Source of the DNA: Escherichia phage BAU.Micro_ELP-22
Length of the DNA: 64,000 bases
Reading direction: 5' to 3' (one strand)
Sequence record: OR699282.2
The translations under genes were made by a program, and so were the position numbers. Below, piece by piece: positions 227 to 23,977 of the stretch; the first letter of the stretch is position 1; the number at the start of each line of letters is the position of its first letter. The notes beneath the pieces were generated by a model. That model had not been told where the DNA came from. It ran no database searches and saw nothing but the letters and a program-made list of their open reading frames with translations.

Positions 227-733
227 ATGCACCGCATGTCTGATTTAGAGTTCAGTTTAGATGCAGCATTTAAATTTGTTCACAAAATAGAAACAATATA
301 CAGTACATTATGTGCAATAACATCAGTATCAAAAGAGCTTGATGTTGGTGAAAGGTATCAGGTGTGGAATAATTCATTTTTTAATAAAGAACATTCTTCG
401 ACGGCATTTTATATTTTAGCATTTAATCCCAGCAATTGTTACCCAGAGAAGCATGAACGTTATCCGAATGACGACATGTGGTTTGAGTACAAAGAAGATT
501 CTGATATGTCGTCAATTGTAGTTCCTGATGATTTTAATGCACAAGATTTAACAGAAGAGTGGTGGTTCCAGCAGAATTTAGTACATGATGATATTGATTT
601 ATTTTTCTATATTGCATTTAAAATGCTTTATCACAACAATATAGTTAAAGAAAGTGTATCGTTTTCATGTCTATATATTGATGATTTGTACAATGAAATT
701 CAAATAAACATGCCCAGAACGCCTGTATCGTAA
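227..733 (+). CDS. hypothetical protein, FQ-motif paralog family
   Basis: 168-aa ORF; C-terminal motif EEWWFQQNLVHDD fits family consensus [DE][DE]x[YF]FQxS-[LIV]-[YH]-D. Confidence 0.6.
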   Translation: MHRMSDLEFSLDAAFKFVHKIETIYSTLCAITSVSKELDVGERYQVWNNSFFNKEHSSTAFYILAFNPSNCYPEKHERYPNDDMWFEYKEDSDMSSIVVPDDFNAQDLTEEWWFQQNLVHDDIDLFFYIAFKMLYHNNIVKESVSFSCLYIDDLYNEIQINMPRTPVS

Positions 734-785
734 GATATGGGCTTTTTTCGTTTTGGTATTGACATAGAAGACCAAAGCTGTTATC

Positions 786-1328
786 ATGTGTATTCATTTT
801 AAAGGAGAACATATAGTGAGTTTCATAATCCCAAGTACATACGAAGATGCATCAAGTGCAGTTCATAAGATTCATTATATTTTTAATTTAATTATTAGAT
901 CTGCAAAAATTAAAATGTATGCACCTCTTGTGACAAATAATCGAAATGAAGAAATTTTTATTAGCACAGACAAAATTATTTTTCCATATTTCAATGAAGA
1001 TAGATTGTGGTTCATACATTTAGCTGCATTACAAAAATATAAGATGTCAATTCGTAATAATTTGGTTATACCGTTATATCATCCCGATATTGGAGAGGAT
1101 GAGTATTTTCAGTACAGCACAGTACACCGCCATGAAGATATCTTTGCTGCTATGCTTATTGCTAAATTGAACACCGTTGATTTGGAGCAGTACAAATACA
1201 ATAATAAATCATGTAAGATCATAATCCCTGCATTCATAGCTCTTTATGATTATGTGGTGCATAACAAAAAAGATGATACATATGCTTTCAATGAAGAGTA
1301 TTTGAATTTTTTTAAGGAGAAAATATGA
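786..1328 (+). CDS. hypothetical protein, FQ-motif paralog family
   Basis: 180-aa ORF; motif GEDEYFQYSTVHRHED. Confidence 0.6.
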   Translation: MCIHFKGEHIVSFIIPSTYEDASSAVHKIHYIFNLIIRSAKIKMYAPLVTNNRNEEIFISTDKIIFPYFNEDRLWFIHLAALQKYKMSIRNNLVIPLYHPDIGEDEYFQYSTVHRHEDIFAAMLIAKLNTVDLEQYKYNNKSCKIIIPAFIALYDYVVHNKKDDTYAFNEEYLNFFKEKI

Positions 1329-1864
1329 GCAGTACAACAGTATCAAAAGTACAGAAAGCAATGTCATTCAATGAAATTGGTACATTTAAAGATAAGATCA
1401 TTGATTGCCTTGAATACATGATTTGTAGTAATATCGAAAGTATCGAGATATTTAACAAGACAAATCGCTCTTACCATATGATGTACATTGCAAACAATAA
1501 TGGTATCATTCCATTTATTTCGGATAGTACAATATGGTACGCATGTGATACGAAAAAATACACAGCAGGTTCGTATAGCTTAGGGTCACATACGGAATTG
1601 ATTATTCCTGAGCATTGTATGCAAGAAGAAGAATATTTTCAAATGCAATGTATACATTCACCATTAGTGTTGTTTAGTTTATATATTATACCTTATATCA
1701 CCAAATGTGTTCATGAGAATAAAGCTCCGTGGAATCATGAATTTGTATCGTTGAAGTTATTGTATAATGTATTAGTAGAATATTATGATTACAGGCACAA
1801 TGGTACAATCAGTGATGTATGGGAATTTGAATCGCTAAGGGTGAAAACATACACAGGTGAATGA
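1325..1864 (+). CDS. hypothetical protein, FQ-motif paralog family
   Basis: 179-aa ORF, ATGA start/stop overlap with upstream gene; motif QEEEYFQMQCIH. Confidence 0.6.
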   Translation: MSSTTVSKVQKAMSFNEIGTFKDKIIDCLEYMICSNIESIEIFNKTNRSYHMMYIANNNGIIPFISDSTIWYACDTKKYTAGSYSLGSHTELIIPEHCMQEEEYFQMQCIHSPLVLFSLYIIPYITKCVHENKAPWNHEFVSLKLLYNVLVEYYDYRHNGTISDVWEFESLRVKTYTGE

Positions 1865-2480
1865 TATGACCAGAATTAAAATGTATGATTTGATGCAGTA
1901 CAGTAAAATTGCCATTCCAGTGCTTAATAAAGTGCTGGATGCATTCATTGCCAAATACCCTGAGAATTCAGTGTTATGTATTCCATTTAGTGTTCCAGAT
2001 AAAGATGATATATTCCAAGTGAATGTCAGTACACGTGGTATTACATTACAGCAGAAATACATGGATACGGAATATTATGGAATAAAGTTGGATTCAGTAC
2101 AGGGTTCAAAATCAGCCTATGATTTTTTTGTTCCTAATAATATAGAGTCATGGGAAACAAACATTTCAAAGAAAGATGAAAATGATGTTCCTATTAGTGG
2201 TGTGTTCAACAATAAAGTTTTTTATTATTACGAAACCGACAAATTCCCTGAAGAGTTATATTACAATTCAGAAATGAATGAAGATGTAGATGCATTCATG
2301 TTTCAATTATCTTTAGTACATGATATCATTGATGTTCAAGAGTTAAGAGCAGAAATCAATTTAGCTAAAGAGTTATCGGACATGCTGCCACCGTTTAGTA
2401 TGCTTTTTTGTGAAGGTGGTTATTTTTCAAAAGAAGTGTTTGAACATTTCGTAGATGTTGTAAAAGGGTTGGATATATAG
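1857..2480 (+). CDS. hypothetical protein, FQ-motif paralog family
   Basis: 207-aa ORF; motif DAFMFQLSLVHDIID. Confidence 0.6.
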   Translation: MNDMTRIKMYDLMQYSKIAIPVLNKVLDAFIAKYPENSVLCIPFSVPDKDDIFQVNVSTRGITLQQKYMDTEYYGIKLDSVQGSKSAYDFFVPNNIESWETNISKKDENDVPISGVFNNKVFYYYETDKFPEELYYNSEMNEDVDAFMFQLSLVHDIIDVQELRAEINLAKELSDMLPPFSMLFCEGGYFSKEVFEHFVDVVKGLDI

Positions 2481-2481
2481 T

Positions 2482-2684: not shown

Positions 2685-3203
2685 ATGCATCAACACAAGC
2701 ATCATTCATATGATTTTGCAATTAACATTATGAAGTTCATTCGAGCGTTGGAGGATGGGAAGCTTAGTCATAAGTACAGAAAAGAGGGTAACAATTGGTT
2801 CAGAAATGATGATGATGAGTTCAGAAGTCATAAGATTGTTTACAGCAATAATTACAGTGCCAATTACCTACAAGATGTAGTGATGTGTTTTGAATACGTG
2901 TTGCAGTTCAGGGGTTCAATCCAGGATGAGTTGATGGAGCACATGTACATCAGATACCTTCCAATGCTCAAAGATGAAAATGTATTATTAAATTCAATAT
3001 ACCAACGAGTTCGTGAAATTGAGTGCAGGGATATATTAGATACAGAAGAATCGTATTTCCAGCAATCCCTGATTTATGCACCTGATTTATTACAGGTACA
3101 TAATTTGTTTAATACATTACGTCAAAACATCAGTACAGACATATTTTTGTCATTATCGGATTATGATACATTTGTCAAAGATTTAGAGGAAATAGGTTTA
3201 TGA
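2685..3203 (+). CDS. hypothetical protein, FQ-motif paralog family
   Basis: 172-aa ORF; motif TEESYFQQSLIYAPD. Confidence 0.65.
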   Translation: MHQHKHHSYDFAINIMKFIRALEDGKLSHKYRKEGNNWFRNDDDEFRSHKIVYSNNYSANYLQDVVMCFEYVLQFRGSIQDELMEHMYIRYLPMLKDENVLLNSIYQRVREIECRDILDTEESYFQQSLIYAPDLLQVHNLFNTLRQNISTDIFLSLSDYDTFVKDLEEIGL

Positions 3204-3544
3204 GTCAATTTTCGGTTTATATAGTAAACGTCAGTAAAGATGGTAGTTTAATTGAATTTGATGTAGTTGATAACAATGATAATTCATATGGTATTAAGGT
3301 ACAGGACAATGATGTACAGTTCAGTACAAGGACAAATTTTGAGAATCCAGTCCAAGTTCCGAATTTCATAGAAGATGAAGCTGCACGATTCCAATACGAA
3401 ACGGCATATGACAATGTACATATGCATATTATTATGCAAACGAGTTTAGTTCAATTAGTTCCTTTGTTCAGACAAAATATATATGTACATGAAGTGTCGA
3501 TTAATGGCATTCAAAGTTCCGTTTTGTTCGGTACAAATATGTAA
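3200..3544 (+). CDS. hypothetical protein, degenerate FQ-motif
   Basis: 114-aa ORF; weak motif EAARFQYETAYDN. Confidence 0.5.
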   Translation: MSQFSVYIVNVSKDGSLIEFDVVDNNDNSYGIKVQDNDVQFSTRTNFENPVQVPNFIEDEAARFQYETAYDNVHMHIIMQTSLVQLVPLFRQNIYVHEVSINGIQSSVLFGTNM

Positions 3545-3554
3545 GGAAAGTACA

Positions 3555-4106
3555 ATGAGTTCAATGAGTTTATTAGATACATTAGAAAAAGACAGAAGTG
3601 CAATTAAGCGTTTAAAAGAGCAAGTACAAAAGATTGTATACAACGTTGATAAGTTTGAAGTCCCAGGAAGATTTGGTGATATTTCCCATACGGAGATCAA
3701 ATCCCTTAAGTCAGATTTGTTGATTAAAAATAAAAATGGGTTGATTTTAGTTTTGAGTTCAGATATGATGGGGGCAACACATAGTTATAATGCAGTATCG
3801 GTGCGTTCAGAGTGTGAAGGTATATATCTATCACAGGGTTTCAATAGCGAGACACAGGTTTGTTTTTGTGATGCAGTACATGACCCTATGAAGTTCACGA
3901 GAAGTGAAGCCCAAGCGTTATTAGAGCTATCAGACGAGAGTTTGTTTCAGTACAGTACAATGTATGACAATGATAAGCTTCGTTGTATGTACGCTGTAAA
4001 GCATTATACACAGGAGTTTTCTGGATTTGCATACCTTTTAGTTAGAACCAATACCAGATATATTGATATGTTAGAAGATTACATCGATAAAGTTGTTAAT
4101 GTATGA
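3555..4106 (+). CDS. hypothetical protein, FQ-motif paralog family
   Basis: ORF track start 3483 overlaps upstream gene; internal ATG 3555 preceded by AAGGAAAG chosen; motif SDESLFQYSTMYDND. Confidence 0.6.
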   Translation: MSSMSLLDTLEKDRSAIKRLKEQVQKIVYNVDKFEVPGRFGDISHTEIKSLKSDLLIKNKNGLILVLSSDMMGATHSYNAVSVRSECEGIYLSQGFNSETQVCFCDAVHDPMKFTRSEAQALLELSDESLFQYSTMYDNDKLRCMYAVKHYTQEFSGFAYLLVRTNTRYIDMLEDYIDKVVNV

Positions 4107-4884: not shown

Positions 4885-5262
4885 ATGGAAATAAAATATA
4901 ATGAATTTTGTGCAAGGACATGGATGTACACTGGTGAGTTAGTTACGCACTCTAACTTATACAAGGGTGATTTAAACTACGCTAGGGACAAGATTTTAAA
5001 GTACTGGAATGCTGACTTTTATTTGATGGATTTTAGTACTGGGTTTCATGGGATATCTATCGAGATGCCGGACTATACAGTACTTGATGATGCTGCACTG
5101 TTCCAGGAGGCATTAGTATTTGATAAGAAGTACATCTGTACATTAGAAGAGATGATTGAATTACAGCGTAGAATTAAATGTATTCACAGGGAATGTATAG
5201 ATATCTGGTGCAGTACTGGTGAGGCCGATTTCTGGAAATTTTTTAATCTAGGAGAAGAGTGA
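4885..5262 (+). CDS. hypothetical protein, FQ-motif family (LFQEALVFDKKY subgroup)
   Basis: In-frame ATG 4885 (MEIKYNEF) after a non-coding stretch; motif DDAALFQEALVFDKKYICTLEEMIELQ. Confidence 0.6.
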   Translation: MEIKYNEFCARTWMYTGELVTHSNLYKGDLNYARDKILKYWNADFYLMDFSTGFHGISIEMPDYTVLDDAALFQEALVFDKKYICTLEEMIELQRRIKCIHRECIDIWCSTGEADFWKFFNLGEE

Positions 5263-5618
5263 TGGAATTTGATTTTTTAATATCAGTACATACTTTCAAG
5301 CACAGTTATCAGTACTTTTGTAATTTAAACAAAGGTGATTTAATGCACAGTGCGAATGAGTATGTTCATTACACTCAGGGTAAATTTACATTCATTGATT
5401 ACAGTTCATTACAGTATCCACACCAAGATATGCCGGACTATACATTAATGGATACCGCAGAACTATTCCAAGAATCATTAGTATTTGATAAGAAGTACTT
5501 GTGTACATTTGAAGAAGTTATTGCAATACAAAATGAAATGAAAGAGTATGCTGCTTTGCATAAACCCAATGCAAGTATTAATCAAGAATACAAATTCAAT
5601 TTAGGAATTCAAGAATGA
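5259..5618 (+). CDS. hypothetical protein, FQ-motif family (LFQESLVFDKKY subgroup)
   Basis: 119-aa ORF; motif DTAELFQESLVFDKKYLCTFEEVIAIQNEMK; close paralog of the 4885 and 5615 genes. Confidence 0.7.
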   Translation: MMEFDFLISVHTFKHSYQYFCNLNKGDLMHSANEYVHYTQGKFTFIDYSSLQYPHQDMPDYTLMDTAELFQESLVFDKKYLCTFEEVIAIQNEMKEYAALHKPNASINQEYKFNLGIQE

Positions 5619-5974
5619 CATATGATTATTCTATGTACTATTATAAGTTACCTAAAGGATGGGACTTGTGCTGTAATCTTATTAAGGGCGACTCGGAACA
5701 TGAGTTGAGTTTATATATGCATTACAAAGATTCTTGTTTTAAATTTATTCATGTATCACATGACGACTATGACTATGAATCTGAGAGTCTTATAGATTAT
5801 ACAGTACTGGACGATGGCGAACTATTTCAGGCTGCATTAGTGTTTGATAAGAATAAGTACTCCTGTACATTTGAAGAAATGGTTTCTTTGCAAAATGAAA
5901 TGAAGAGATTTGAAAAAGAAAACGTATTTAATCCATCCCCATCAAGAACGAATAATTATTATTTCAATATATGA
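5615..5974 (+). CDS. hypothetical protein, FQ-motif family (LFQxALVFDK subgroup)
   Basis: 119-aa ORF; motif DDGELFQAALVFDKNKYSCTFEEMVSLQNEMK. Confidence 0.7.
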   Translation: MTYDYSMYYYKLPKGWDLCCNLIKGDSEHELSLYMHYKDSCFKFIHVSHDDYDYESESLIDYTVLDDGELFQAALVFDKNKYSCTFEEMVSLQNEMKRFEKENVFNPSPSRTNNYYFNI

Positions 5975-5983: not shown

Positions 5984-6475
5984 ATGACATTACAGAGTTC
6001 ATTGGAAAAAGCAAAGAAGATTCATGAGTACATGAATATGGCAAAAGAAGGTTCAGTTTACGGTGTTTTCAAAGACACAAGTACTCAATATTATGTACCG
6101 GATAACCTCCTTTATAATGACTGCTCAGATACAGAAACGTGCGTACTGGATACAGAAACGTGCATACTAGATACCGACCCTAATGATTATGAATGCTTCA
6201 TTAATATGCATAATGAGTACATGGTCTATATTAATGATACAGATACCATCAACAGTACTGACAGCGATTCCAATGACATTATAATTCCGAGTGAAGTACT
6301 GGAAGGTCCGTGGGATAGTGAAGAGTATTACTTCCAACAAAGTACTGTATATGATAATGAAGTACTTGATGTTATTATAATTATGTGGTACTTTAAAAGT
6401 ATTGGTTCTGGGAACTTCTATTTCGATTACAAATACGTAAAGAAAACTGTAGATAACGGTATTAACAGGGGTTGA
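5984..6475 (+). CDS. hypothetical protein, FQ-motif family (EEYYFQ/WYFK subgroup)
   Basis: 163-aa ORF; N-term MTLQSSLEKAKKIHEYM; C-term VLEGPWDSEEYYFQQSTVYDNEVLDVIIIMWYFKSIG; contains in-frame 21-bp tandem repeat. Confidence 0.75.
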   Translation: MTLQSSLEKAKKIHEYMNMAKEGSVYGVFKDTSTQYYVPDNLLYNDCSDTETCVLDTETCILDTDPNDYECFINMHNEYMVYINDTDTINSTDSDSNDIIIPSEVLEGPWDSEEYYFQQSTVYDNEVLDVIIIMWYFKSIGSGNFYFDYKYVKKTVDNGINRG

Positions 6476-6476: not shown

Positions 6477-6947
6477 ATGAGTTTAGAAAGAGCATTAGAG
6501 ATTGCGAAGTTAATTGATTTATGCAGCAAAGAAATTGTAGCAAATTGTCTTAATGGATATCTATTCAAGGAAGGTAAATCTTATTGTCGAATGAGATACG
6601 ATGACAGTAGTGAGTACATTCACATGTATGAAGAAAACTTAGATTCTTCTGAAACAACACTCAATGGGTGTGATGTTAATTTGGAAGATAATTACATGTA
6701 CTTCTGTCGTGATGCTGATATTTTAATACAAGATTCTGACATTATATCTGGTGCAGCAGAGAAACATCTTCCGTATTCAGTACTGGATAATGACTGGGGA
6801 AGTGAAGAGTTCTACTTCCAGCAGAATACTATCTACGAGGAATATGTGCTTGACAAGCTTGTCATTCTGTGGTACTTTAATAATACCGATTGTCCTAGCT
6901 TCTATCTGGACTTGGATCTACTACGAGTTATTAAAGAGGATATATGA
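6477..6947 (+). CDS. hypothetical protein, FQ-motif family (EEYYFQ/WYF subgroup)
   Basis: 156-aa ORF; motif DNDWGSEEFYFQQNTIYEEYVLDKLVILWYF. Confidence 0.75.
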   Translation: MSLERALEIAKLIDLCSKEIVANCLNGYLFKEGKSYCRMRYDDSSEYIHMYEENLDSSETTLNGCDVNLEDNYMYFCRDADILIQDSDIISGAAEKHLPYSVLDNDWGSEEFYFQQNTIYEEYVLDKLVILWYFNNTDCPSFYLDLDLLRVIKEDI

Positions 6948-7384
6948 GTTTAGCAAGTGCACTTAAACTGGCACACAAAATACATCACTTCCACGATAAC
7001 ATAAAAAGTGGTTTCTATGGTGATAAAGTAAGTGCATTTGGTAATGAGTATTATCTATCAGGTATAAAGACATACTCTGATGATATTTTACTTATGGGCC
7101 ATGATAAAGACAATACTATACAGTACTCTTCATGTAGTCAATATACTAGTTTCTTTGTATATATTCCAGGTACTAAGATTACTTTTGACACATCAAATAC
7201 ACCTGTTGACTTCGGGGTACTTGATGGGCCGTGGGGTACTGAAGAGTATTACTTCCAACAGAGTCTTATTTTTAACCAAGAAATGCTTGATTCCTTGGTT
7301 GTTTTGTGGTACTTTAAGGAATTGAATTTTGAACCCTTCTTCCTTGACTGGGGAGCATGTGAATATTTAAGTACAGGGGATTAG
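6944..7384 (+). CDS. hypothetical protein, FQ-motif family (EEYYFQ/WYFK subgroup)
   Basis: 146-aa ORF; motif LDGPWGTEEYYFQQSLIFNQEMLDSLVVLWYFK. Confidence 0.75.
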   Translation: MSLASALKLAHKIHHFHDNIKSGFYGDKVSAFGNEYYLSGIKTYSDDILLMGHDKDNTIQYSSCSQYTSFFVYIPGTKITFDTSNTPVDFGVLDGPWGTEEYYFQQSLIFNQEMLDSLVVLWYFKELNFEPFFLDWGACEYLSTGD

Positions 7385-7386: not shown

Positions 7387-7878
7387 ATGTCATTAGAAAG
7401 TGCATTGAAAGAAGCAAAGAAGATTCATGAGTACATGATTATGGTACAAGAAGGTTCAGTGCCTGGTGTGTATAAAACATCTGATACTGAATTTTTTGTA
7501 AAAGACCGCGACGATTATGATGAGTCAGAGATACATGCAGAAACGTTAGTACTACACACTGATACGGGTGATACTGATGACTGTGAATATCATATGTACA
7601 ATCAGTACATTAGTTATTGTAGAGATGAAGATATTATAATTTACAGCCCTGATTACGATGATTATGACACAATCATTCCGTATTCAGTACTAGAAGGTCC
7701 GTGGGATAGTGAAGAATATTACTTCCAGAATAGTACGTTGTACAATGAAGAAGAATTAGATGTTATTGTAATTATGTGGTACTTTAAAAGTATTGGTTCT
7801 GATAGTTTCTATTTCGATTATGAATACGTAGAGAATACTGTAGGGGAAGATAATGTCATTACAAAGTGCTCTGGATAA
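7387..7878 (+). CDS. hypothetical protein, FQ-motif family (EEYYFQ/WYFK subgroup)
   Basis: 163-aa ORF; N-term MSLESALKEAKKIHEYM; motif LEGPWDSEEYYFQNSTLYNEEELDVIVIMWYFKSIG; about 100 nt near-identical to 6295-6410. Confidence 0.75.
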   Translation: MSLESALKEAKKIHEYMIMVQEGSVPGVYKTSDTEFFVKDRDDYDESEIHAETLVLHTDTGDTDDCEYHMYNQYISYCRDEDIIIYSPDYDDYDTIIPYSVLEGPWDSEEYYFQNSTLYNEEELDVIVIMWYFKSIGSDSFYFDYEYVENTVGEDNVITKCSG

Positions 7879-8296
7879 AGCAAAAGAACTACAGGTATAT
7901 ATTGAAGATATCAAGGCTGGGAAGTTCGAAGAAGTATACAAAGCCGAGAATGGTAACTACTACAAGGATAGTGATTTTGCTACAACTACAGTTATTCTTG
8001 GGTTGAATTCCAAAAGTCCCGCAGATTTTTCACAATACAATCCAGATGCAGAATTTATCAGTTATGCTTATGGTGGTGAAATCCGTTTTTATAATCGCAG
8101 CAGACCTTTAAAATTGAACTTTGAAGTACTGAAAGGTCCGTGGGATAGTGAAGAGTATTACTTTCAGAATAGTACTTTGTATGATGATGAAGTACTAGAT
8201 ACTTTAGTTATTATGTGGTACTTTAAAAGTATTGATAGTACAAGGTTTTATTTGGATTATGAATATGTACGTGCCGAACATAAGGGTAAACGATGA
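7853..8296 (+). CDS. hypothetical protein, FQ-motif family (EEYYFQ/WYFK subgroup)
   Basis: 147-aa ORF; N-term MSLQSALDKAKELQ; motif LKGPWDSEEYYFQNSTLYDDEVLDTLVIMWYFKSID. Confidence 0.7.
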   Translation: MSLQSALDKAKELQVYIEDIKAGKFEEVYKAENGNYYKDSDFATTTVILGLNSKSPADFSQYNPDAEFISYAYGGEIRFYNRSRPLKLNFEVLKGPWDSEEYYFQNSTLYDDEVLDTLVIMWYFKSIDSTRFYLDYEYVRAEHKGKR

Positions 8297-8607
8297 AATT
8301 ATTATACAGTATTCAGTACATTCCAGGTACAATTAGTTTAATGTATTTCTTCGATCATGATAATTTCCAGCACCTTGCCGTTAGAAGATGTAATGAATCT
8401 TTAATGATTGAATATCTTCACGATTGTGATTATCTTCCTGACTTCCTTGAATGTGATTACAGAGATGATCATGAATCATTTATTTTTCAGGAATCACTTG
8501 TATGGGATAAGAGAATTAATTTTTATGCTTTACTTGAGATACAAAAACATGTGAAGTACTACTGGGATTACTTAATTACCCAAAAATATATAGAGATTGA
8601 AATATAA
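8293..8607 (+). CDS. hypothetical protein, FQ-motif family
   Basis: 104-aa ORF; motif DHESFIFQESLVWDKRINF. Confidence 0.65.
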   Translation: MKLLYSIQYIPGTISLMYFFDHDNFQHLAVRRCNESLMIEYLHDCDYLPDFLECDYRDDHESFIFQESLVWDKRINFYALLEIQKHVKYYWDYLITQKYIEIEI

Positions 8608-16105: not shown

Positions 16106-16616
16106 AGATGATATTCTAATTAGACTAATTAAGAGTTTAATAAAGTTCTCAAATAATGATGTCGATACATACAAAGTAGGGGATATTGAATTCAAATCAT
16201 TTGGTATGTACGGTGAGGACAAAACATATTATGCGTCAATGAAAATTCAAGATTTTCACGAGATGTTAATATCGTTATCATATGAAGATGTTGATCCAAG
16301 ATGGAGTTCCAGTATTTCACTATCGAGAATGGTAATTCGTAGTAAGCATCGTTACATTTCGTCAAAGAATACTCCTAACTTGATTAATATTGTGTTGAAT
16401 GAAAATACCAATCCTATATCTAAACTTGATATCGTACCGTTAACCGATGAAGTACTTTTTCAATTGAGTACCATTTGTGATGAAGATGTGATATCATGTA
16501 TGAAAATTTATGAGACGGTTGGGAGTGATATTCCCATGAACTATTACCTAACGATAGATGGAACATACCTCAGAGATGAAGCTCTAGCGTACATTGACAG
16601 TGTTTTACCAAAATAA
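16098..16616 (+). CDS. hypothetical protein, FQ-motif paralog family
   Basis: In-frame ATG 16098 overlapping upstream stop; motif TDEVLFQLSTICDEDV. Confidence 0.55.
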   Translation: MDKDDILIRLIKSLIKFSNNDVDTYKVGDIEFKSFGMYGEDKTYYASMKIQDFHEMLISLSYEDVDPRWSSSISLSRMVIRSKHRYISSKNTPNLINIVLNENTNPISKLDIVPLTDEVLFQLSTICDEDVISCMKIYETVGSDIPMNYYLTIDGTYLRDEALAYIDSVLPK

Positions 16617-16637
16617 AGACCCTTATTGGGTCTTTTT
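16617..16637 (+). terminator. rho-independent terminator
   Basis: AGACCC-ttatt-GGGTCT hairpin followed by TTTTT. Confidence 0.7.
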
Positions 16638-16648: not shown

Positions 16649-16677
16649 TTTACAGTAGCATTCAGATGTGTTATAAT
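16649..16677 (+). promoter_or_regulatory. sigma70-like promoter with extended -10
   Basis: TTTACA, 17-nt spacer, TGtTATAAT (-10 hexamer 16672-16677); 28 nt upstream of ATG 16705. Confidence 0.6.
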
Positions 16678-16704: not shown

Positions 16705-17271
16705 ATGAGTACTGAATTAATTAAAGAAGTTACCTTACTTCTGAAGCATTGTTTTAAGTTCATTCCTGATACTGGTTCACGCCAGTACATTAAAGTTAAT
16801 GAGAAATATAACATCAATATCCTTGTATCTGAAACTGCGAGCAGTTATGCTAACATTGAGTTGGATTCTGAAGAAAAATATACAGTATTACAAATCATAG
16901 CAGATGTACAACGTAAACAAGATTATCGTTCTTCATTTTACAACGATTATCTGTGTGTTTGCTCAAACTTCAGTGAGAATAAAATTGTGTATAAGAATTT
17001 ATACACACATGAAGTGATTGATACATATAATTATAAAATTTCATCTGATGAATACAATGTGCTAATGTTCAACGCAAACCTTTTGTATGATGCCAGTACT
17101 GTACGCTGTTTAGAGTTAGCATATAAAATTCCAAAGATCATGGAAAGAAAAGATTTGATTCACTTTAAAACTATTTTAAAATACAGTACAAAAGAATTAG
17201 AGGATTTAGTACAGGCTCTTAAGAATTTCATTAATGAACATGTACCTGTTAAATTCGAGGATGCACAATGA
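16705..17271 (+). CDS. hypothetical protein, degenerate FQ-motif
   Basis: 188-aa ORF with AGGAG RBS; weak motif NVLMFNANLLYDASTV. Confidence 0.6.
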   Translation: MSTELIKEVTLLLKHCFKFIPDTGSRQYIKVNEKYNINILVSETASSYANIELDSEEKYTVLQIIADVQRKQDYRSSFYNDYLCVCSNFSENKIVYKNLYTHEVIDTYNYKISSDEYNVLMFNANLLYDASTVRCLELAYKIPKIMERKDLIHFKTILKYSTKELEDLVQALKNFINEHVPVKFEDAQ

Positions 17272-17852
17272 ACCATATCAGAACTAAAATTTTGAGACTC
17301 ATGCATGACATTGCAGAACTTTCAGAGATTCATGACATTACAGAAATTGTTGAATTTGATGATTATCGACTGAAAATTGAAAACAAATCCAAACATCGTT
17401 TTGGATCAGTTCAGTTGGATGTATATAAAACTTATGAATTTTCTAAAAAAATTAAAAGTTCATGGGATACGATTACTATGTACATTCGCACATCCAGAAA
17501 TCGTGAACGTATTGGTTCTATTTCTTCTAATATGGTATTTGCGAATGCATTACATGAAAAAATGAATAAAATTGTAGAATCTGATTTCAGTGAAGATGAT
17601 GGTTTTATTGGGTTGGATGTTCCACCAGAATTAGACCAAAGTGAAGATATTCGAGATGCATTCATTTTCCAGAAATCATTGTTGGACAATTACAAAGAAT
17701 TCGAGTACTTAATGCTTTGTTACGATACTGCAAAAGTTCTTGATTGTGGTGAACTAGTTATGTACAATGATTTTATCAATTACAAGACTGATGTTCTGAA
17801 TACACTACTTCAAAATATAGAATCGGTTAAGGAAAAATATGAACGCTTATAG
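17268..17852 (+). CDS. hypothetical protein, FQ-motif paralog family
   Basis: 194-aa ORF; motif DIRDAFIFQKSLLDNYKEFEYLML. Confidence 0.6.
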   Translation: MNHIRTKILRLMHDIAELSEIHDITEIVEFDDYRLKIENKSKHRFGSVQLDVYKTYEFSKKIKSSWDTITMYIRTSRNRERIGSISSNMVFANALHEKMNKIVESDFSEDDGFIGLDVPPELDQSEDIRDAFIFQKSLLDNYKEFEYLMLCYDTAKVLDCGELVMYNDFINYKTDVLNTLLQNIESVKEKYERL

Positions 17853-18417
17853 TTATATGACAGAACGCCATCAGTTATTATATGATATCAGTACAAAAAT
17901 GTTATCAATTGTTAGTAGTGCAAAAGAAATTGAAAAACAATACCTCATCCGTGATGTAGCAATTTCATCTAAATGTTGGTCCAATGAATATTACGATCAC
18001 GGTATTCTTACTATTTCTGGGGCTAGAAATATTTGTATTGTAAAAAATAAAAATAAAAGTAATGAAGAGTGTGAGATTATAACCGATATACAAATTAAGG
18101 ATGATGGAAGTTTTTCACACCACCCATTCCATATTAGTACTATTGGTGTTTTATATAATATTAAAGTACTATTCGGTGATGAAGAGTATGTGTTAAAATC
18201 TATCAATCCAGAATCAAGTACAGTTGAAGAAGAACTGTTCCAGATGAGCACTGTTATACCTGAAGAGGTTCTTAGTACTGTTATTTTTTGTAGTTTAATT
18301 TATCATGAATACAAAAAGTACCAGTTCGATTTCCACATGTTAGGAACATACATCTTCAATAATTTGAATGTAGATCGTTTAACAGCATTAAATGCAGCAA
18401 TGGATAAGGTGCTATAA
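17839..18417 (+). CDS. hypothetical protein, FQ-motif paralog family
   Basis: 192-aa ORF; motif VEEELFQMSTVIPEEVL. Confidence 0.6.
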   Translation: MNAYSYMTERHQLLYDISTKMLSIVSSAKEIEKQYLIRDVAISSKCWSNEYYDHGILTISGARNICIVKNKNKSNEECEIITDIQIKDDGSFSHHPFHISTIGVLYNIKVLFGDEEYVLKSINPESSTVEEELFQMSTVIPEEVLSTVIFCSLIYHEYKKYQFDFHMLGTYIFNNLNVDRLTALNAAMDKVL

Positions 18418-18845
18418 TGACAAGAGATGATTGTTTGTACATATGGGATATAATTGAAACTACACTTTCAAATCCAGAAAATTATAAAACAAAAAAAAGA
18501 CAACGACACAAAATATGGATAGATTTGTTCGTTGAGGGCATACACGCAGTGACTATTTGGGATTCACCGAGGGCATCATCATCTACTCTGTTGGACAATG
18601 AATGCATTGATTGCATTAATTCCACTTTTCATCTCCACGGTACTACAATTTTTGGTACATTTCTGGATATTGAAAGTAAAGATGATATTGATTCACTTGC
18701 GTTACAATACCAAGTACTATATAATACTAAATTAATTTACGATTTAGTACTAGCTTCTTATGTGTATAAATTAATGATGAAATATAATCATATTTCTGTT
18801 TCAGTTTATACTAAGGATATTCTTTCATTAAGAGACAAAACATGA
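18417..18845 (+). CDS. hypothetical protein
   Basis: 142-aa ORF, start/stop coupled to neighbours. Confidence 0.5.
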   Translation: MTRDDCLYIWDIIETTLSNPENYKTKKRQRHKIWIDLFVEGIHAVTIWDSPRASSSTLLDNECIDCINSTFHLHGTTIFGTFLDIESKDDIDSLALQYQVLYNTKLIYDLVLASYVYKLMMKYNHISVSVYTKDILSLRDKT

Positions 18846-19351
18846 GTTTATTAAATGCACGCGAATTGGTTGAGATGTATGAGATTTTGTCTTCATATAA
18901 AAATTCTCCAAAAGATGTAATTCTAAACAAAAAGTTCCATGTCAGTGTTGAACATATAACAAATATAGATATGATTTCTTTGGTGGAAAGTAATAAGTCA
19001 GGTCTGGAGCGTGATATCATGCGTTTGATTTATATTCCTAAACCATCATATACTAATGATAGTACTATTAGCAATGAGACATTCATGTATAGTCCTGGTA
19101 CGGATTCTACTATAGTATCGCTGTCCAATAAATCAATGGATACTTTCCAATTCATCTATACCAGTACTGATAACATTGAAGAAATTGAATTTCAAAACAA
19201 TACATTAAGTCCATGTAGTAGTGTTATAACCTTTATGTCATATCTATGGTCAACTAAAACAAGTGCTGTTGTATATAGTTCAAATTATACACAAGATAGT
19301 ATTGTTGAATCATATAAAGTTCTAAAGGAATACTATGAAAATAACAAATGA
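18842..19351 (+). CDS. hypothetical protein, degenerate FQ-motif
   Basis: 169-aa ORF; motif IEEIEFQNNTLSP. Confidence 0.55.
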   Translation: MSLLNARELVEMYEILSSYKNSPKDVILNKKFHVSVEHITNIDMISLVESNKSGLERDIMRLIYIPKPSYTNDSTISNETFMYSPGTDSTIVSLSNKSMDTFQFIYTSTDNIEEIEFQNNTLSPCSSVITFMSYLWSTKTSAVVYSSNYTQDSIVESYKVLKEYYENNK

Positions 19352-19916
19352 TTTTATTAAAAGTGTAGTACACCCTATGCTTAGTATTATGAAAAAAATA
19401 CAGAATCTACCGGAAGATAACGATTACAAGTTTAATCGTTTTGATTCAGATGTGTTTTGTATTGAAATTGAAATTAATAACAATCGTAATTTACATTTAA
19501 AATTCAAAGAATCTTCGAGTCCGTACTACAACTTTGATATGAATTTTAAAATAGATACTGACATTGAAGAAAACGTAATATCAAATCATACTAGCAAAAA
19601 TGGTTTTATGCATAGAACTACTATGTACAATAATAAAAATAGTATTATATCTAAATGGAATCAACAATTCACTAAAATTTGTGAAATTGAATATAATGAT
19701 TTTGGTGAAGAACATTACTTTCAGTTAAGTACAATTCATGAACTTCCACCATATGATTATGTTAAAACATGGTTTGATATTCATAATATAATTGATGATG
19801 CAATCAAACTTCCATTTGGTGTGTCAATATCATATACTGCTCCTAAAACATTTGTTTTTACTGAAGATATGATTATGAAAAAGATATGGGCAATCATCCC
19901 ACTTATGATGGATTAA
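19335..19916 (+). CDS. hypothetical protein, FQ-motif paralog family
   Basis: 193-aa ORF; motif GEEHYFQLSTIHELPPYDY. Confidence 0.6.
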   Translation: MKITNDFIKSVVHPMLSIMKKIQNLPEDNDYKFNRFDSDVFCIEIEINNNRNLHLKFKESSSPYYNFDMNFKIDTDIEENVISNHTSKNGFMHRTTMYNNKNSIISKWNQQFTKICEIEYNDFGEEHYFQLSTIHELPPYDYVKTWFDIHNIIDDAIKLPFGVSISYTAPKTFVFTEDMIMKKIWAIIPLMMD

Positions 19917-19923
19917 ATTTGTA

Positions 19924-19949
19924 CCAGGGGTTGACTCTGGTTTTTTTGT
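19924..19949 (+). terminator. putative rho-independent terminator
   Basis: ACCAG-gggttgact-CTGGT hairpin followed by TTTTTTT. Confidence 0.5.
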
Positions 19950-19977: not shown

Positions 19978-20529
19978 ATGAACTACAATCATGATCTTTT
20001 TACATTATGTGCATCCAAATGTGTTGAAGGATGGGCAGATAAAATCAATACCATAATTCATCGATATCTCGTCTTTAGTTCCCGTGCACGAAGTGAGGGG
20101 GCTATGGATTTCAAATATACACTATCTATTGATGGTGTAACTATCCATGCAGACGAAGAACGTCTGAACATTAATTTGTATGATTCCTGTGTATTTGCTA
20201 TTCACCAAAAGATGGGGAAAGGATGGGGTTGTAATAACATTAACTCCAAAGCTATCTTTTGGGTTGGTCACCATCAGACAGTACTTGATCCTTCAATCAA
20301 ATCTAATCTTTTATCCGATAATATGGTTTATGATTTATTGTACTCCGAAGAACAACATTTTCAGTTAAGTACATTACATGATCTGGCACAGTACGAGGAT
20401 TGTTACAAAACATTAGAACTATGCCATTCCCTTGAACTTAAAGATAAATTGATACAAGTTTACCCTTCATTCTTTCATGAAGAAGTACAAAGTACACTAG
20501 ATCATATTTTATATGGATACGATAAATGA
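19978..20529 (+). CDS. hypothetical protein, FQ-motif paralog family
   Basis: 183-aa ORF with AGGAG RBS; motif SEEQHFQLSTLHDLAQYED. Confidence 0.65.
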   Translation: MNYNHDLFTLCASKCVEGWADKINTIIHRYLVFSSRARSEGAMDFKYTLSIDGVTIHADEERLNINLYDSCVFAIHQKMGKGWGCNNINSKAIFWVGHHQTVLDPSIKSNLLSDNMVYDLLYSEEQHFQLSTLHDLAQYEDCYKTLELCHSLELKDKLIQVYPSFFHEEVQSTLDHILYGYDK

Positions 20530-21128
20530 GAAAAAGTTATCAAGAAGCTATTGACTTAATTCGTGAAGTTATCAAGGTGGCTCCTGCTGCTATTGAGTTC
20601 AAGAAGTCCATATACAAGAAGTATGGTTCAATGTCGAGTATGTGCTTTCAAAAGAAACGTAGAGCATTCACTACCCAGTACTGGAATGATTCTATCATCC
20701 TGAGCAATGAGACTCAGCGTATTTTAACACTAGAATCTGAACCTAATGAGTACGGGGAAGGGAACATTTGTGTACCTGATTATGATGAAATTAACTTCAA
20801 CTGCGGTGATTTTGAAACAACATTATTACTTCATGAGGGTTATCCAGAAGGTGATGTATTAGCTGAGTACAATCCAAAAACTAAAATTCTCAAAAGAGGA
20901 ATCCAGTTCACTATTAATAACAAAGATGATGTTCAAGCAGCACTGATGCAACTGAGTACAAGTGAACCTATCACTATTAGTGTAGAAGAGTTATGGGGAA
21001 TTATTTCAGTACTCAATGAGTGCTACAAAGTAAAATCATTGCGTAAACACAGCATTATATTACATACCAATATGGCAAATATAAAATGTAAGCACATTCA
21101 AGAAATGGTGGTTCCAGATGGACTTTAA
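20526..21128 (+). CDS. hypothetical protein, degenerate FQ-motif
   Basis: 200-aa ORF; motif DDVQAALMQLSTSEP. Confidence 0.55.
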   Translation: MRKSYQEAIDLIREVIKVAPAAIEFKKSIYKKYGSMSSMCFQKKRRAFTTQYWNDSIILSNETQRILTLESEPNEYGEGNICVPDYDEINFNCGDFETTLLLHEGYPEGDVLAEYNPKTKILKRGIQFTINNKDDVQAALMQLSTSEPITISVEELWGIISVLNECYKVKSLRKHSIILHTNMANIKCKHIQEMVVPDGL

Positions 21129-21702
21129 AGAAATTGAAAGTAAATTAAAGTACTTCAAAGATATCAAACTTCTTTGGAAAAAGTATAAAGTTGATTACAA
21201 TTTCAGTGATGATGAGACAATAAAATACATTGAGATTAATATCAAAATCAAGTTCAAGAATAATAATTATGGTGAAGTAACCTTAAATCATACTGGTATA
21301 TCACTCAAGGACTATGATGGTACAACACTCGCATATTTTGACTTCACACCAGAACCAGGTGAAACACTACTTAGTGAGATAAATTCCTATGACATGGAAG
21401 TGTTCGGCGGGAATCCGTTACTGTTCCGACTTTCTGAAGAGTGGAGTGAAGAGTACTACACTTACAAAGATGGTGTAGTACTTGACATTCATGGAGAAGT
21501 TGTGAATGACTTGGAAGAACGTTTGTTCCAAGAATTGTGTGTTTCAAATACTTCATATGCATACAATCATATCCTTGACATGTTTGATTTATATAGTAAA
21601 ATAGATGCTGAAATGAAGGCACATGGTATTCATTACCTTACAATTAACGACTATGCTCAACTCGAAACCGCTGTGAAAGCATTGACTAAAGTACTGAAAT
21701 AG
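21118..21702 (+). CDS. hypothetical protein, degenerate FQ-motif
   Basis: 194-aa ORF; motif LEERLFQELCVSNTSY. Confidence 0.55.
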   Translation: MDFKEIESKLKYFKDIKLLWKKYKVDYNFSDDETIKYIEINIKIKFKNNNYGEVTLNHTGISLKDYDGTTLAYFDFTPEPGETLLSEINSYDMEVFGGNPLLFRLSEEWSEEYYTYKDGVVLDIHGEVVNDLEERLFQELCVSNTSYAYNHILDMFDLYSKIDAEMKAHGIHYLTINDYAQLETAVKALTKVLK

Positions 21703-21711: not shown

Positions 21712-22125
21712 ATGAAACTGTATCATGCGAGTACTGTAAAAATTGATAACTTTTATATCCCGTATGGTGGTCTTCATATGGGAGGTAAACACAGTGCTTT
21801 GGAAGCTGCATTACGCAAGCTGAGAAGCCCACTGAACGTAGTAGACGCATGTACAGTATACTTGCATACCTTAGAAGTTGATGTTGATAACGTGCTTCTG
21901 TGTGAAGATTTAGGCAGTGATGATGAGTGGCGTTCACTTATTGAGAATTGCACTGCTCAAGGTTATGATGCTGTTCAGTACAAAAATGATTACGAGCCAG
22001 ACAATGTTCCTAGCTTTATGATTTGGGATGCATCTAAAGTTCGCATCATTGAAGTTGATGCTATGCATATGGATGAAGCTGAAATGATTATCGAAGATTT
22101 TCTTGATGAATATGAAGGTGTATAA
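21712..22125 (+). CDS. hypothetical protein (no FQ motif, interrupts array)
   Basis: 137-aa ORF, acidic C-terminus, AGGAAT-type RBS. Confidence 0.55.
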   Translation: MKLYHASTVKIDNFYIPYGGLHMGGKHSALEAALRKLRSPLNVVDACTVYLHTLEVDVDNVLLCEDLGSDDEWRSLIENCTAQGYDAVQYKNDYEPDNVPSFMIWDASKVRIIEVDAMHMDEAEMIIEDFLDEYEGV

Positions 22126-22661
22126 TGACTGACCCGATGGTAGCACTGGCACGTACTAAGTTACTATTAAAGATTGGTGAGATTTTTACGGTTCTTCTGT
22201 CCAATAATATTGATATTACTGAGCTAGATATTAAGCAACCGTGGGAAGTGACTATGTTCTCGGCGTTCCACCGATTGTCATATAAAGGTGAAAGTGTTCT
22301 TGATTTTAACCCTAAAGCAAAATTCATAGATTATGCTGCGTTGTACAGAGAGTTGCACCGAAATATTTATTCCGGTTGTATAACCAATAACTTCAAAGAA
22401 ATTAAAGTTCAAACTGCATCACATGAGTTCAATGATTTACTTTATCCAGAATTTAATCTAACGGAAGAATTACTCTTTCAGTACTCGTTAATTCTCACAA
22501 ATCTCGAAACGCTAGAGTACTACAAAGAGTTAGTAGATATTTTTATGAATACACGTCTTTCAAAAGATATTGTGATATTCTGGTATACAGAGCATGTTAC
22601 GGAGGAATTGCTTACTGAATTTCTTCTAAATATGACAGCTATAAAGGAGAAGTTATGTTAG
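22125..22661 (+). CDS. hypothetical protein, FQ-motif paralog family
   Basis: 178-aa ORF; motif TEELLFQYSLILTNLETLEYY. Confidence 0.6.
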   Translation: MTDPMVALARTKLLLKIGEIFTVLLSNNIDITELDIKQPWEVTMFSAFHRLSYKGESVLDFNPKAKFIDYAALYRELHRNIYSGCITNNFKEIKVQTASHEFNDLLYPEFNLTEELLFQYSLILTNLETLEYYKELVDIFMNTRLSKDIVIFWYTEHVTEELLTEFLLNMTAIKEKLC

Positions 22662-23128
22662 ATATTTTAGGAAACATCGACACTGCAAATTATTTTATTC
22701 AAGATGCATTGTTTAATACAGTACAACAAGGTTTAGAAGTTCACCACAATGTTTATCAGGGTGATGGATATTTTGTTGATATTATCGAGACACGTAAAAA
22801 TACATTTAATGTTAACATTACGACGCTTGGAAGACAGAACATTGCACGAATTTTAGTAAGTAAAGATGAAATAGTACTGAGATACAGTGCTAAGTTTATG
22901 TTGACTTATAAGAAAAAAACTGATATGTTCAGTACTAATTTATTTGATGAGCCATTTGACCTTGAAGATATTGAAGCTACTTTCTTTACTCAAAGTACTA
23001 TGGTAAAATACACTGATGTTCAATTTTCTGCTGATGTAATGTCGGAAACATTACAAATGATCAAGGTATTATTTTATGCATTTGAGCAATTTAGAGAAGA
23101 AAGAAACAAGGTTAACAACCACAGATGA
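22655..23128 (+). CDS. hypothetical protein, degenerate FQ-motif
   Basis: 157-aa ORF; motif DIEATFFTQSTMVKYTD. Confidence 0.5.
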   Translation: MLDILGNIDTANYFIQDALFNTVQQGLEVHHNVYQGDGYFVDIIETRKNTFNVNITTLGRQNIARILVSKDEIVLRYSAKFMLTYKKKTDMFSTNLFDEPFDLEDIEATFFTQSTMVKYTDVQFSADVMSETLQMIKVLFYAFEQFREERNKVNNHR

Positions 23129-23489
23129 ACTAATAGAGGCGATCACTAAGGAGTCAAAATACCACAAAGGGATTCGTCTATATTTTATAGATATTGGTTC
23201 AATGGAAGGCATATACATTTATGGTTCACAATCTTTATCTTATGATGTAATGCCAAAAAAACATGTAAAAATCTTTTTAGGTTCAGATAAAAAAACTTTC
23301 TTGACAATTAATGATAAAAACGTTATTATGAATTCGTTGGGTCATGATAAGGTGGAAATTGATCTAAACACACTGGAGGATATTGATTTTTTTCAATACG
23401 AGTGTTTAGGTGTTGACTTACATGGCATTAGTAGCGATATGATAAAATCATTAATCAAATATTTCGAAGGTGTTCATAAATGTATCTAA
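23076..23489 (+). CDS. hypothetical protein, degenerate FQ-motif
   Basis: 137-aa ORF (start uncertain, overlaps upstream gene); motif LEDIDFFQYECLGVD. Confidence 0.45.
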   Translation: MHLSNLEKKETRLTTTDELIEAITKESKYHKGIRLYFIDIGSMEGIYIYGSQSLSYDVMPKKHVKIFLGSDKKTFLTINDKNVIMNSLGHDKVEIDLNTLEDIDFFQYECLGVDLHGISSDMIKSLIKYFEGVHKCI

Positions 23490-23977
23490 CTAAATCAATG
23501 AAAAATTCATTTGATAAAATCAAGAGTTGTCTTGATGGGGAAAATATTACAAGTGTTACACAAACTGCTGACCAAATTCAAAGCAGTTCAAGTGATTGTA
23601 CTGTTATTTTAGGTTTACATAGTCTACGTTTATCAATAGTAAATAATATTGACAACACTGCTATTGTAATCACACCATGCCATATTCAAAATGAGAATGG
23701 TGTATATCTTCATCACATGGGAACAGTATTTCATATTTTCAATACAAACGAAAACATTGTTAAGGAATACAAATCTCTTAATATTGATTCAGGTGAATTA
23801 TTTCAAATGAGTACTTTGTACTCATGTAATTTTACAGATACTTCATGTATTTTGCCATTTTTCTTGGAAATTATTAAGAAAATGGAAAATTTAAAACGTG
23901 AATACAATAAAGAAATGGTTCCTGAAGCTATATTAAATATTACTAATGCTATAGAGAAGTATAATGCAGTGACTTAA
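23480..23977 (+). CDS. hypothetical protein, FQ-motif paralog family
   Basis: 165-aa ORF; motif DSGELFQMSTLYSCNF. Confidence 0.6.
   Translation: MYLTKSMKNSFDKIKSCLDGENITSVTQTADQIQSSSSDCTVILGLHSLRLSIVNNIDNTAIVITPCHIQNENGVYLHHMGTVFHIFNTNENIVKEYKSLNIDSGELFQMSTLYSCNFTDTSCILPFFLEIIKKMENLKREYNKEMVPEAILNITNAIEKYNAVT

Follow-up and report, generated by a model that had tools for sequence, protein, structure and literature searches.

A 64,000-nucleotide stretch of the genome of Escherichia phage BAU.Micro_ELP-22 (OR699282.2), referred to here as the window, carries at its left end a long tandem array of small + strand genes (227-23977). Most of their products belong to a single family, whose members share a short motif with an F and a Q in invariant alignment columns and which we call the FQ family. 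The window has a GC content of 29-36% and its coding is almost wholly on the + strand; in the array, − strand open reading frames (ORFs) are short and run antisense to the + strand genes that enclose them. Phage SP27 (LC494302, 163.5-188.5 kb) matches the window at 98% identity over 25 kb; for about 30 further jumbo phages of the genus Asteriusvirus, from E. coli and Salmonella, the identity is 85-97%, with PBECO4, 121Q, phAPEC6 and Sharanji among them. All of the SP27 genes matched in this way carry the annotation 'hypothetical protein'. Neither tRNA genes nor Rfam families were found in the window.

The FQ family and its tandem array

How many of these genes belong together? A strict regular expression for the motif, [DEQNST][DEQNSTAG].[YFLWMIH][FM]Q.[STNAQEL][LTVICY], with the core form [DE][DE]x[YFL]FQxS[TL], matches 35 of the 52 + strand ORFs of at least 60 amino acids (aa) in 227-23977 and none of the 78 ORFs outside, and residue shuffles (1000 trials) gave a mean of 0.19 matches with a maximum of 4. 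All-versus-all comparison with phmmer joins 22 ORFs in one component. An iterative hidden Markov model (HMM) built on the window ORFs alone recruits 30, and after pooling with the ORFs of phages fEgEco12, A4 and Turkey5 it recruits 36 window ORFs, 35 in the array plus an outlying gene at 35631-36320; reversed and shuffled decoys in the HMM database were never recruited in either case. Profile-profile comparison, combined with HMM membership of phmmer relatives in other phages, adds five probable members (15003, 17268, 18417, 18842 and 23076) and two possible ones (3200 and 20526), which brings the family to 40-42 of the 46 ORFs of at least 100 aa in 227-23977.

An earlier note on this DNA, made from the sequence alone, had described an array of about 45 paralogs with the motif in nearly every + strand ORF. 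The array is indeed one of homologous genes whose motif aligns as homologous columns, and the six example motifs that were quoted are all present in the ORFs named. The count comes down to 35 firm, five probable and two possible members. The membership of four ORFs (10931, 16705, 21712 and 22655) is unsupported, and seven ORFs of 63-72 aa also interrupt the array (30-248, 2482-2676, three in 4093-4688 and two in 10003-10390). Between the start of the motif and the C-terminus there are 44-79 residues, where the note had given 35-50. Both subgroups that it recognised are real, namely five MSLxSAL ORFs at 5984-8296 and a short LFQESLVFDKKY set. Among the three outliers that it listed, 35631 is upheld by the HMM, 35056 is weak (a phmmer link to 19335) and 26682 lacks support (HH probability 1%). 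DNA segments of about 100 nt that it called near-identical are more divergent than that: the best DNA repeat within the array covers 201 nt at 80% identity, and a five-copy repeat of 109 nt is 63-72% identical. Codons within the motif vary synonymously between copies (GAA/GAG, TTC/TTT, CAG/CAA) and the conservation of the motif therefore acts on the protein, not on the DNA. By homology the FQ genes form a single family, diversified about a core that has been conserved. On its left the array is cut short by the edge of the window: SP27 has 6 further members in 4.4 kb upstream and about 48 members in total among 597 annotated features (~8% of genes).

Neighbouring genes of the array mostly overlap, with twelve 4-nt start/stop junctions of the ATGA type; coding density is ~100% and only five gaps, of 52-88 nt, occur within the array. 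The genes are organised in translationally coupled operons. Of the five best sigma-70 consensus matches in positions 1-20,000 (at least 11/12), three (759, 12767 and 16649) fall in the gaps, which make up less than 2% of the sequence; terminator-like hairpins, too, are placed in such gaps between operons (Table 1). The candidate promoter at 12767 is conserved despite identities of only 58-73% between the genes on either side of it and their orthologs in fEgEco12. In phage CBB, a comparable short-ORF region with RpoD-like promoters is suspected to be early (PMC5259590). Mass spectrometry of phAPEC6 identified 62 virion proteins, none of them between gp347 and gp549, the interval in which the array lies (approximately gp404c-gp445c).

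The position of the array relative to the genome end can be read from fEgEco12 (375 kb), which has a direct terminal repeat at 1-20,993 (20,993 bp), confirmed by restriction digests (PMC13070987). The repeat of Sharanji measures 20,668 bp and Asteriusvirus repeats are about 21 kb long. In fEgEco12 the repeat holds spaced small genes, tightly packed ORFs of ~70 aa fill ~21-27 kb and FQ members occupy 27.3-56.3 kb. The array might have been the terminal repeat itself, as ~28 kb Logan contigs and the 22 kb repeat of CBB had led us to suspect. The fEgEco12 mapping places it to the right of the repeat: because members start at 27.3 kb and the repeat ends at 20,993, the array adjoins the repeat and is not inside it.

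Table 1. FQ family members and candidate transcription signals in the window. Basis: HMM, member in the pooled iterative HMM; motif, strict match to the regular expression.
Positions	Strand	Feature	Motif	Basis or remark
227..733	+	family member	EEWWFQQNL	HMM, motif
721..742	+	terminator-like hairpin then T run		ends one transcription unit
759..787	+	putative sigma-70 consensus promoter, intergenic		TTGACA-17-TATCAT, TG extension
786..1328	+	family member	EDEYFQYST	HMM, motif; true start perhaps 3' of promoter
1325..1864	+	family member	EEEYFQMQC	HMM, motif
1857..2480	+	family member	DAFMFQLSL	HMM, motif
2685..3203	+	family member	EESYFQQSL	HMM, motif; phrog_28680
3200..3544	+	possible degenerate member	AARFQYET	HH probability 38%
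3483..4106	+	family member	DESLFQYST	HMM, motif
4885..5262	+	short-subfamily member	DAALFQEAL	HMM; longest ORF from 4777, orthologs favour ATG at 4885
5259..5618	+	short-subfamily member	TAELFQESL	HMM; second structure model
5615..5974	+	short-subfamily member	DGELFQAAL	HMM
5984..6475	+	MSLxSAL subgroup	EEYYFQQST	HMM; phrog_9317
6477..6947	+	MSLxSAL subgroup	EEFYFQQNT	HMM
6944..7384	+	MSLxSAL subgroup	EEYYFQQSL	HMM
7387..7878	+	MSLxSAL subgroup	EEYYFQNST	HMM; first structure model (pLDDT 89.5)
7853..8296	+	MSLxSAL subgroup	EEYYFQNST	HMM
8293..8607	+	short-subfamily member	ESFIFQESL	HMM
8607..9080	+	family member	EDAYFQYST	HMM, motif
9046..9492	+	family member	EEGYFQGST	HMM, motif
9489..10025	+	family member	DEQCFQLSC	HMM
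10380..10940	+	family member	EENIFQNSV	HMM, motif
11539..11901	+	short-subfamily member	EDELFQESL	HMM; N-terminal parent of hybrid P0038
11891..12226	+	short-subfamily member	EGELFQESL	HMM; C-terminal parent of hybrid P0038
12186..12770	+	family member	QEYYFQLSL	HMM, motif; phrog_28549
12767..12796	+	putative sigma-70 promoter, perfect 12/12, intergenic		extended -10; kept in fEgEco12 and A4
12830..13306	+	family member	EEEFFQYST	HMM, motif
13303..13788	+	family member	EEMYFQGSC	HMM, motif; phrog_12674
13778..14140	+	short member	EEELFQQST	HMM
14124..14537	+	family member	PDELFQYSL	HMM
14525..15019	+	family member	EESYFQNSL	HMM, motif
15003..15545	+	probable member	FQ motif lost	HH probability 92%; two phmmer relatives in other phages are HMM members
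15542..16105	+	family member	ESAMFQLSL	HMM, motif
16050..16616	+	family member	DEVLFQLST	HMM, motif
16615..16635	+	terminator-like hairpin then T run
16649..16677	+	putative sigma-70 consensus promoter, 11/12, intergenic		TG extension
17268..17852	+	probable member	DAFIFQKSL	HH probability 75%; two phmmer relatives in other phages are HMM members
17839..18417	+	family member	EEELFQMST	HMM, motif
18417..18845	+	probable member	degenerate SLALQYQVL	HH probability 34%; one phmmer relative elsewhere is an HMM member
18842..19351	+	probable member	EEIEFQNNT	HH probability 14%; one phmmer relative elsewhere is an HMM member
19335..19916	+	family member	EEHYFQLST	HMM, motif
19923..19941	+	terminator-like hairpin then T run
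19978..20529	+	family member	EEQHFQLST	HMM, motif
20526..21128	+	possible degenerate member	QAALMQLST	regex match but HH probability 2.5%
21118..21702	+	family member	EERLFQELC	HMM, motif
22125..22661	+	family member	EELLFQYSL	HMM, motif
23076..23489	+	probable member	DIDFFQYEC	HH probability 29%; one phmmer relative elsewhere is an HMM member
23480..23977	+	family member, last gene of the array	SGELFQMST	HMM, motif
35056..35634	+	probable outlying member (weak)	PEHFQISTL	phmmer link to 19335-19916; HH probability 13%
35631..36320	+	outlying family member	EEEHFQLMM	HMM

Distribution and evolution of the family

Firm HMM counts in four Asteriusvirus genomes are 36, 44, 43 and 39, the 36 being those of the window with its truncated left edge. 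Klebsiella phage K64-1 (Alcyoneusvirus) has about 26 copies, 22 HMM-supported and 4 motif-only, in a syntenic array that precedes Dam, nucleotidyltransferase and RnlA genes just as the array of the window does. RnlA occurs in over 1,500 phage records, too many for it to serve as an anchor in a search for further arrays. Serratia phage BF (Eneladusvirus) carries about 9 motif-bearing ORFs in a syntenic block at 20-25 kb of the linear record, in a layout like that of fEgEco12, and 5 of them score by HMM (best E = 2e-11; decoys none). A search of related phages for copy number, as the earlier note advised, thus yields a series of ~9 (Serratia BF), ~26 (K64-1) and ~44-48 (Asteriusvirus) across three genera. 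Because the array is syntenic in K64-1 and Serratia BF, the family and most of its duplications predate the genera; the duplications are old. The same synteny speaks against the rapid duplication that had been proposed, as does the distance between copies: in protein, the closest paralogs of a genome share 54-57% identity (54% for the best pair in the window), and in DNA no more than 80%. Near-identical recent duplicates, of the kind produced by 'genomic accordion' amplification, were not encountered in the array.

An exhaustive profile search of 1.84 billion representative proteins returned only 123 clusters at E ≤ 1e-3, all of 65-200 aa and most of them carrying [ST]EExYFQxS[TL]xY[DN]. A DNA pattern for the motif found 6 matches in 2.9 million IMG/VR contigs, 121Q and RaK2 among them; two contigs of one metagenome have genuine arrays, and one further contig, devoid of HMM matches, is a chance hit. 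An 8 kb contig from the European Nucleotide Archive packs 16 genes tightly together, 15 of which are members. A profile search with a divergent alignment returned close relatives only, and tblastn with members from two further loci gave no match. The FQ family is lineage-specific to the RaK2-like jumbo phages of the genera Asteriusvirus, Alcyoneusvirus and Eneladusvirus. Many members lie on contigs of ~350 kb that are labelled Escherichia coli by NCBI and that are whole Asteriusvirus genomes in bacterial isolate assemblies; this agrees with reports that lytic phages can persist in bacterial isolates.

Is the family known under another name? Pfam gave no match above the gathering score for 10 members, and profile searches of NCBIfam, PADLOC and PDB sequences with a 30-member alignment gave 0 matches each. 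The BFVD matches are confined to uncharacterised proteins of 121Q, RaK2, Serratia BF, Yersinia fHe-Yen9 and Cronobacter GAP32. PHROGs divides the family among at least nine groups of unknown function (9317, 12674, 28549, 28680, 13866, 15629, 22855, 34636 and 37163), with matches down to E = 1e-136 and weaker cross-matches between groups; it represents the family today and does not record its unity, motif or fold. The earlier note had been unable to name a family, and these searches bear it out: the comparison of structures and HMMs matched no characterised domain or solved fold. Family, motif, fold and cross-genus synteny are undescribed in the literature searched.

Selection was assessed between the window and fEgEco12. 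The median ratio of nonsynonymous to synonymous divergence (omega) is 0.23 for 39 family ortholog pairs and 0.12 for 84 other genes (Mann-Whitney p = 2e-4), with values above 0.5 in only 3 family pairs; purifying selection acts on the FQ genes, in relaxed form. Along the protein, omega falls to 0.14 in the motif and up to 6 residues from it, against 0.30 for the N-terminal and C-terminal parts alike. Synonymous divergence (dS) of adjacent orthologs swings from ~0.01 (6944-9492) to more than 2 (10380, 11891 and 22655), which argues for gene-by-gene mosaic exchange between Asteriusvirus lineages. Reciprocal best hits among four Asteriusvirus genomes define 69 orthogroups, of which 19 are present in all four genomes and 30 in one only. 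One database protein, P0038 of Salmonella phage SD-1_S14, joins two neighbouring paralogs in register: its first 85 residues correspond to the 11539 gene (84/85) and its last 29 to the adjacent 11891 gene (29/29); unless it reflects an assembly collapse, this is the expected product of unequal recombination between tandem paralogs. The idea that the motif itself is a recombination hotspot was rejected, as 1 clear chimera stands against 31 non-chimeric genes (~32 testable).

Predicted fold and possible function

An AlphaFold2 model of the 7387-7878 product, computed from an alignment of 30 window paralogs only, reaches a predicted local distance difference test score (pLDDT) of 89.5 and a predicted template modelling score of 0.85. 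It begins with an N-terminal helix, continues with seven strands, two short helices (99-103 and 109-115) and a long helix (121-135), and closes with a strand (141-144) and a final helix (146-152). The motif, EEYYFQN in this protein, is the short helix 109-115, with a block-mean pLDDT of 92-98. The 5259-5618 product of the short subfamily, modelled from a separate alignment (pLDDT 83.4), lacks the N-terminal helix but repeats the core of the first model, in which a sheet is combined with the FQ helix, the long helix and the terminal strand. The family is thus confidently predicted to share an alpha/beta fold. Mean column identity is 11-14% and conservation is almost all in the motif, whose opening [ST]-E-E looks like a helix-capping box; no other part of the protein is as constrained as this helix. 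Members are soluble proteins of 100-210 aa, acidic, with a median isoelectric point (pI) of 4.9. None has a transmembrane segment: the sole transmembrane-like stretch belongs to the extra N-terminal part that the 4885 gene gains if it is read, too long, from 4777. Neither a SUKH/Imm-type immunity fold nor an Ocr/ArdA DNA-mimic fold with extreme acidity was recognised among them.

What might such a repertoire do? The likeliest role, which we propose tentatively, is that of an early-expressed set of proteins that would bind and modulate host proteins on a shared scaffold, for host takeover or counter-defence. Host RNA polymerase would transcribe the array genes early in infection. Each paralog would join the common scaffold to its own divergent sheet and termini and so bind and modulate a different host protein, and the FQ helix would serve mainly as a fold determinant. 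An early host-binding repertoire is suggested by the combined fit of position, promoters, absence from virions, solubility, relaxed purifying selection and turnover; an anti-defence or host-takeover role in particular would fit the position, the putative promoters, the non-virion status and the turnover.

Several observations pull against this proposal. The array promoters are consensus-level matches only, and the predicted fold rests on alignments of paralogs. With omega at 0.30 both in the N-terminal and in the C-terminal part, neither can be singled out as a specificity domain, and gene-wide positive selection was not seen among the ortholog pairs. Fold-level comparison with solved structures, solved anti-defence proteins included, revealed no similarity, and neither did the PADLOC defence-system models. 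The invariant Q, a polar residue kept at 11-14% identity, could mark a shared functional site and not be purely structural. In the main rival explanation, unlikely in our estimation, the FQ helix docks all paralogs on one host or phage machine, for example a phage ClpP-type protease, RNA polymerase or the ribosome, and the variable parts recruit different substrates or retune the shared machine. Such adaptors would account for conservation concentrated in one short segment, for F and Q being invariant and for the lower omega at the motif, and the same-strand region that holds the array also has, at 48876-49571, the gene of a ClpP-family protease (PF00574, E = 4e-41). The motif is predicted as an ordered helix, however, and not as a flexible docking peptide; the 15003-15545 gene has lost the FQ and is still under purifying selection (omega 0.22); and the known ClpP-docking loops, [LIV]-G-[FL], differ from the FQ motif.

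The proteins might instead act inside the phage programme, as regulators or chaperones of phage transcription timing, replication or assembly, which we consider improbable. A Zn-ribbon expansion in phage G has been proposed to consist of specific transcription factors or structural DNA-binding proteins (PMC7824862), and the conserved position of the array in three genera, together with the 19 orthogroups common to all four Asteriusvirus genomes, would agree with an internal role. Against it, the acidity of the proteins argues against binding to nucleic acids, 30/69 orthogroups in a single phage would be unusual for core regulators, and none of the products was detected in virions. The virion data also bear on the host-range role that the earlier note had envisaged: with array products absent from the phAPEC6 virion proteins, a role exerted through the virion is unlikely. 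Superinfection exclusion, another of its suggestions, or any envelope-acting arsenal seems very improbable to us. The genes do lie in a putatively early region, and the terminal repeat of fEgEco12 has a gene annotated 'protein spackle'; because members have no transmembrane segment, membrane-based exclusion is unlikely, and their acidity and predicted globular shape speak against it too, no dedicated signal-peptide prediction having been run. Still harder to credit is a motif that serves as a protease cleavage site, E-E-x-Y-F-Q-[G/S], strikingly similar to the E-x-x-Y-x-Q↓G/S of the tobacco etch virus (TEV) NIa protease and cut by a 3C-like enzyme. The literal TEV consensus occurs in 9046-9492 (EEGYFQGS) and 13303-13788 (EEMYFQGS), but in most members the position that follows Q varies widely (Q, N, Y, L, E, M or G). 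The models place the motif in a helix, where prediction is at its best, whereas a cleavage site would call for an accessible linker in extended form, and in the window, the part of the genome that was checked, the proteases are of ClpP type, with no 3C- or chymotrypsin-like one; on these structural and protease grounds we dropped this candidate. Finally, array products are without experimental detection to date, as would be the case for spurious ORFs or decaying pseudogenes in AT-rich DNA. We give this notion almost no credence in view of omega at 0.23 with dS up to more than 2, two confident AlphaFold models, conservation across genera, the 12 ATGA-type junctions and a region that is essentially all coding.

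Neighbouring genes and parallels in other viruses

Other families of small ORFs surround the array. Immediately upstream (SP27 153.8-161.4 kb) lies a separate 27-member family of tightly packed ORFs of ~65-96 aa with a motif of approximately G-T-N-[FY]-Q-E-x-[YF]-V, in which, as in the FQ motif, an aromatic residue is followed by Q; it has no detectable relation to the FQ family (HH probability 0.8%). Two of its ORFs sit inside the FQ array, at 10003-10221 (E = 2e-12) and 10199-10390 (E = 3e-7). With two mini-families of ~60 aa ORFs (11 members in one, 6 in the other) still further upstream (SP27 128.5-132.5 kb), the left ~60 kb of the genome is dominated by tandem paralog arrays. To the right of the FQ array, 31039-32448 holds five paralogs of 88-103 aa with an N-terminal L-N-D-I-Q-F-T-Y-K-x-L-Y, followed by ORFs of similar size up to ~34.7 kb. 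The ~70, ~60 and ~95 aa families all compare with the FQ family at HH probabilities below 1% (hhalign). The ~85 aa ORFs at 39706-39966 and 42649-42900 are paralogs of each other (phmmer).

On the 3' side of the array, the window encodes Dam, nucleotidyltransferase, RnlA, polynucleotide kinase-like, DNA ligase, ClpP, Sir2, NUDIX-like, WGR and PTH2 genes. Many of them fall in a nucleic-acid repair and NAD-related cluster at 36582-63435 (RnlA-like RNA ligase, polynucleotide kinase/phosphatase-like protein, DNA ligase, PTH2, Sir2, WGR and two deaminases), in which the NUDIX-like gene directly follows Sir2; the cluster has the look of a toolkit for counter-defence or RNA repair. At 52836-53459 there is another ORF, with a hydrophobic N-terminus and a weak similarity to ClpP that falls short of the Pfam cut-off, and 53718-54380 is a 'protease' according to the fEgEco12 annotation, without a Pfam match. 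A non-coding gap of 326 nt (27531-27856) opens with a -10 element of the TGnTATAAT type and a strong hairpin of terminator form (27559-27587); the gap contains no Rfam match and no tRNA. The non-family ORFs in or beside the array (10931, 16705, 21712, 22655, 24020, 24657 and 26682, to which we add the doubtful 20526) have no Pfam match above the cut-off. An 'ADP-ribosyl transferase' annotation in ph0011 could not be linked to any window gene.

Tandem multigene families are already known in large viruses. The RaK2 paper counted ~10% of the RaK2 gene products as paralogues. In Bacillus phage G a Zn-ribbon expansion of ~35 copies was called 'unprecedented' by Iyer et al. 2021 (PMC7824862). It shares with the FQ family its very large scale in small proteins of a jumbo phage and a function proposed by inference; it differs in that its Zn-ribbon fold is known, whereas the acidic alpha/beta fold predicted for the FQ family is without known relative, and the FQ family has more copies (~44-48 versus ~35) in one syntenic tandem array found in three genera. 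The FQ family is bigger than the phage G case.

Parallels exist in eukaryotic viruses too. The MGF110, MGF360 and MGF505 families of African swine fever virus (ASFV) and the host-range families of poxviruses, with their 'genomic accordions', form terminal same-strand paralog arrays. Like them, the FQ array consists of tandem same-strand paralogs near a genome end, varies in copy number and content between isolates and is open to paralog recombination that yields chimeras and deletions (P0038 here). Sequences, folds and hosts are unrelated, and the immune-evasion and host-range roles shown in those viruses are inferred for the FQ family; amplifications there are recent, whereas the FQ duplications are ancient. 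Host-takeover early clusters such as the SPO1 terminal-redundancy module, the T5 pre-early region and the T4 immediate-early small ORFs are likewise dense small-gene clusters near a genome end with strong host-type promoters, their genes mostly non-essential. They comprise unrelated genes, whereas the FQ array is built of one family and adjoins the terminal repeat on its inner side. The SUKH/Imm arrays of polymorphic-toxin systems, same-strand runs of divergent paralogs of ~100-200 aa that are thought to neutralise different toxins, have a similar layout; the FQ family differs from them in showing no fold similarity to solved structures, in being phage-encoded and in lacking an associated toxin gene. 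A bolder version of our proposal, to which we attach limited confidence and which we think somewhat doubtful, is that this could be the largest single-family phage expansion recognised (~48 copies, ~8% of genes), with a new fold and acting as a combinatorial early arsenal in which the FQ helix would engage one hub and the variable surfaces would engage host defence or housekeeping proteins, a bacteriophage counterpart of the ASFV and poxvirus families.

What are the implications of the FQ array for jumbo phage biology? In these 350 kb phages, which are being put forward as therapeutic agents against E. coli, Salmonella and Klebsiella, about one gene in 12 is a member of one unnamed family, and some 45 'hypothetical proteins' per genome are reduced to one problem, with one predicted fold, one invariant motif and one block of genes. 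The copy gradient of ~9, 26 and 44-48 in three genera offers a natural series for relating gene-family expansion to jumbo genome size. If the takeover or counter-defence role is true, bacterial viruses, like giant eukaryotic viruses, would maintain large terminal multigene families, and the array would hold dozens of new protein inhibitors and point to as many host targets.

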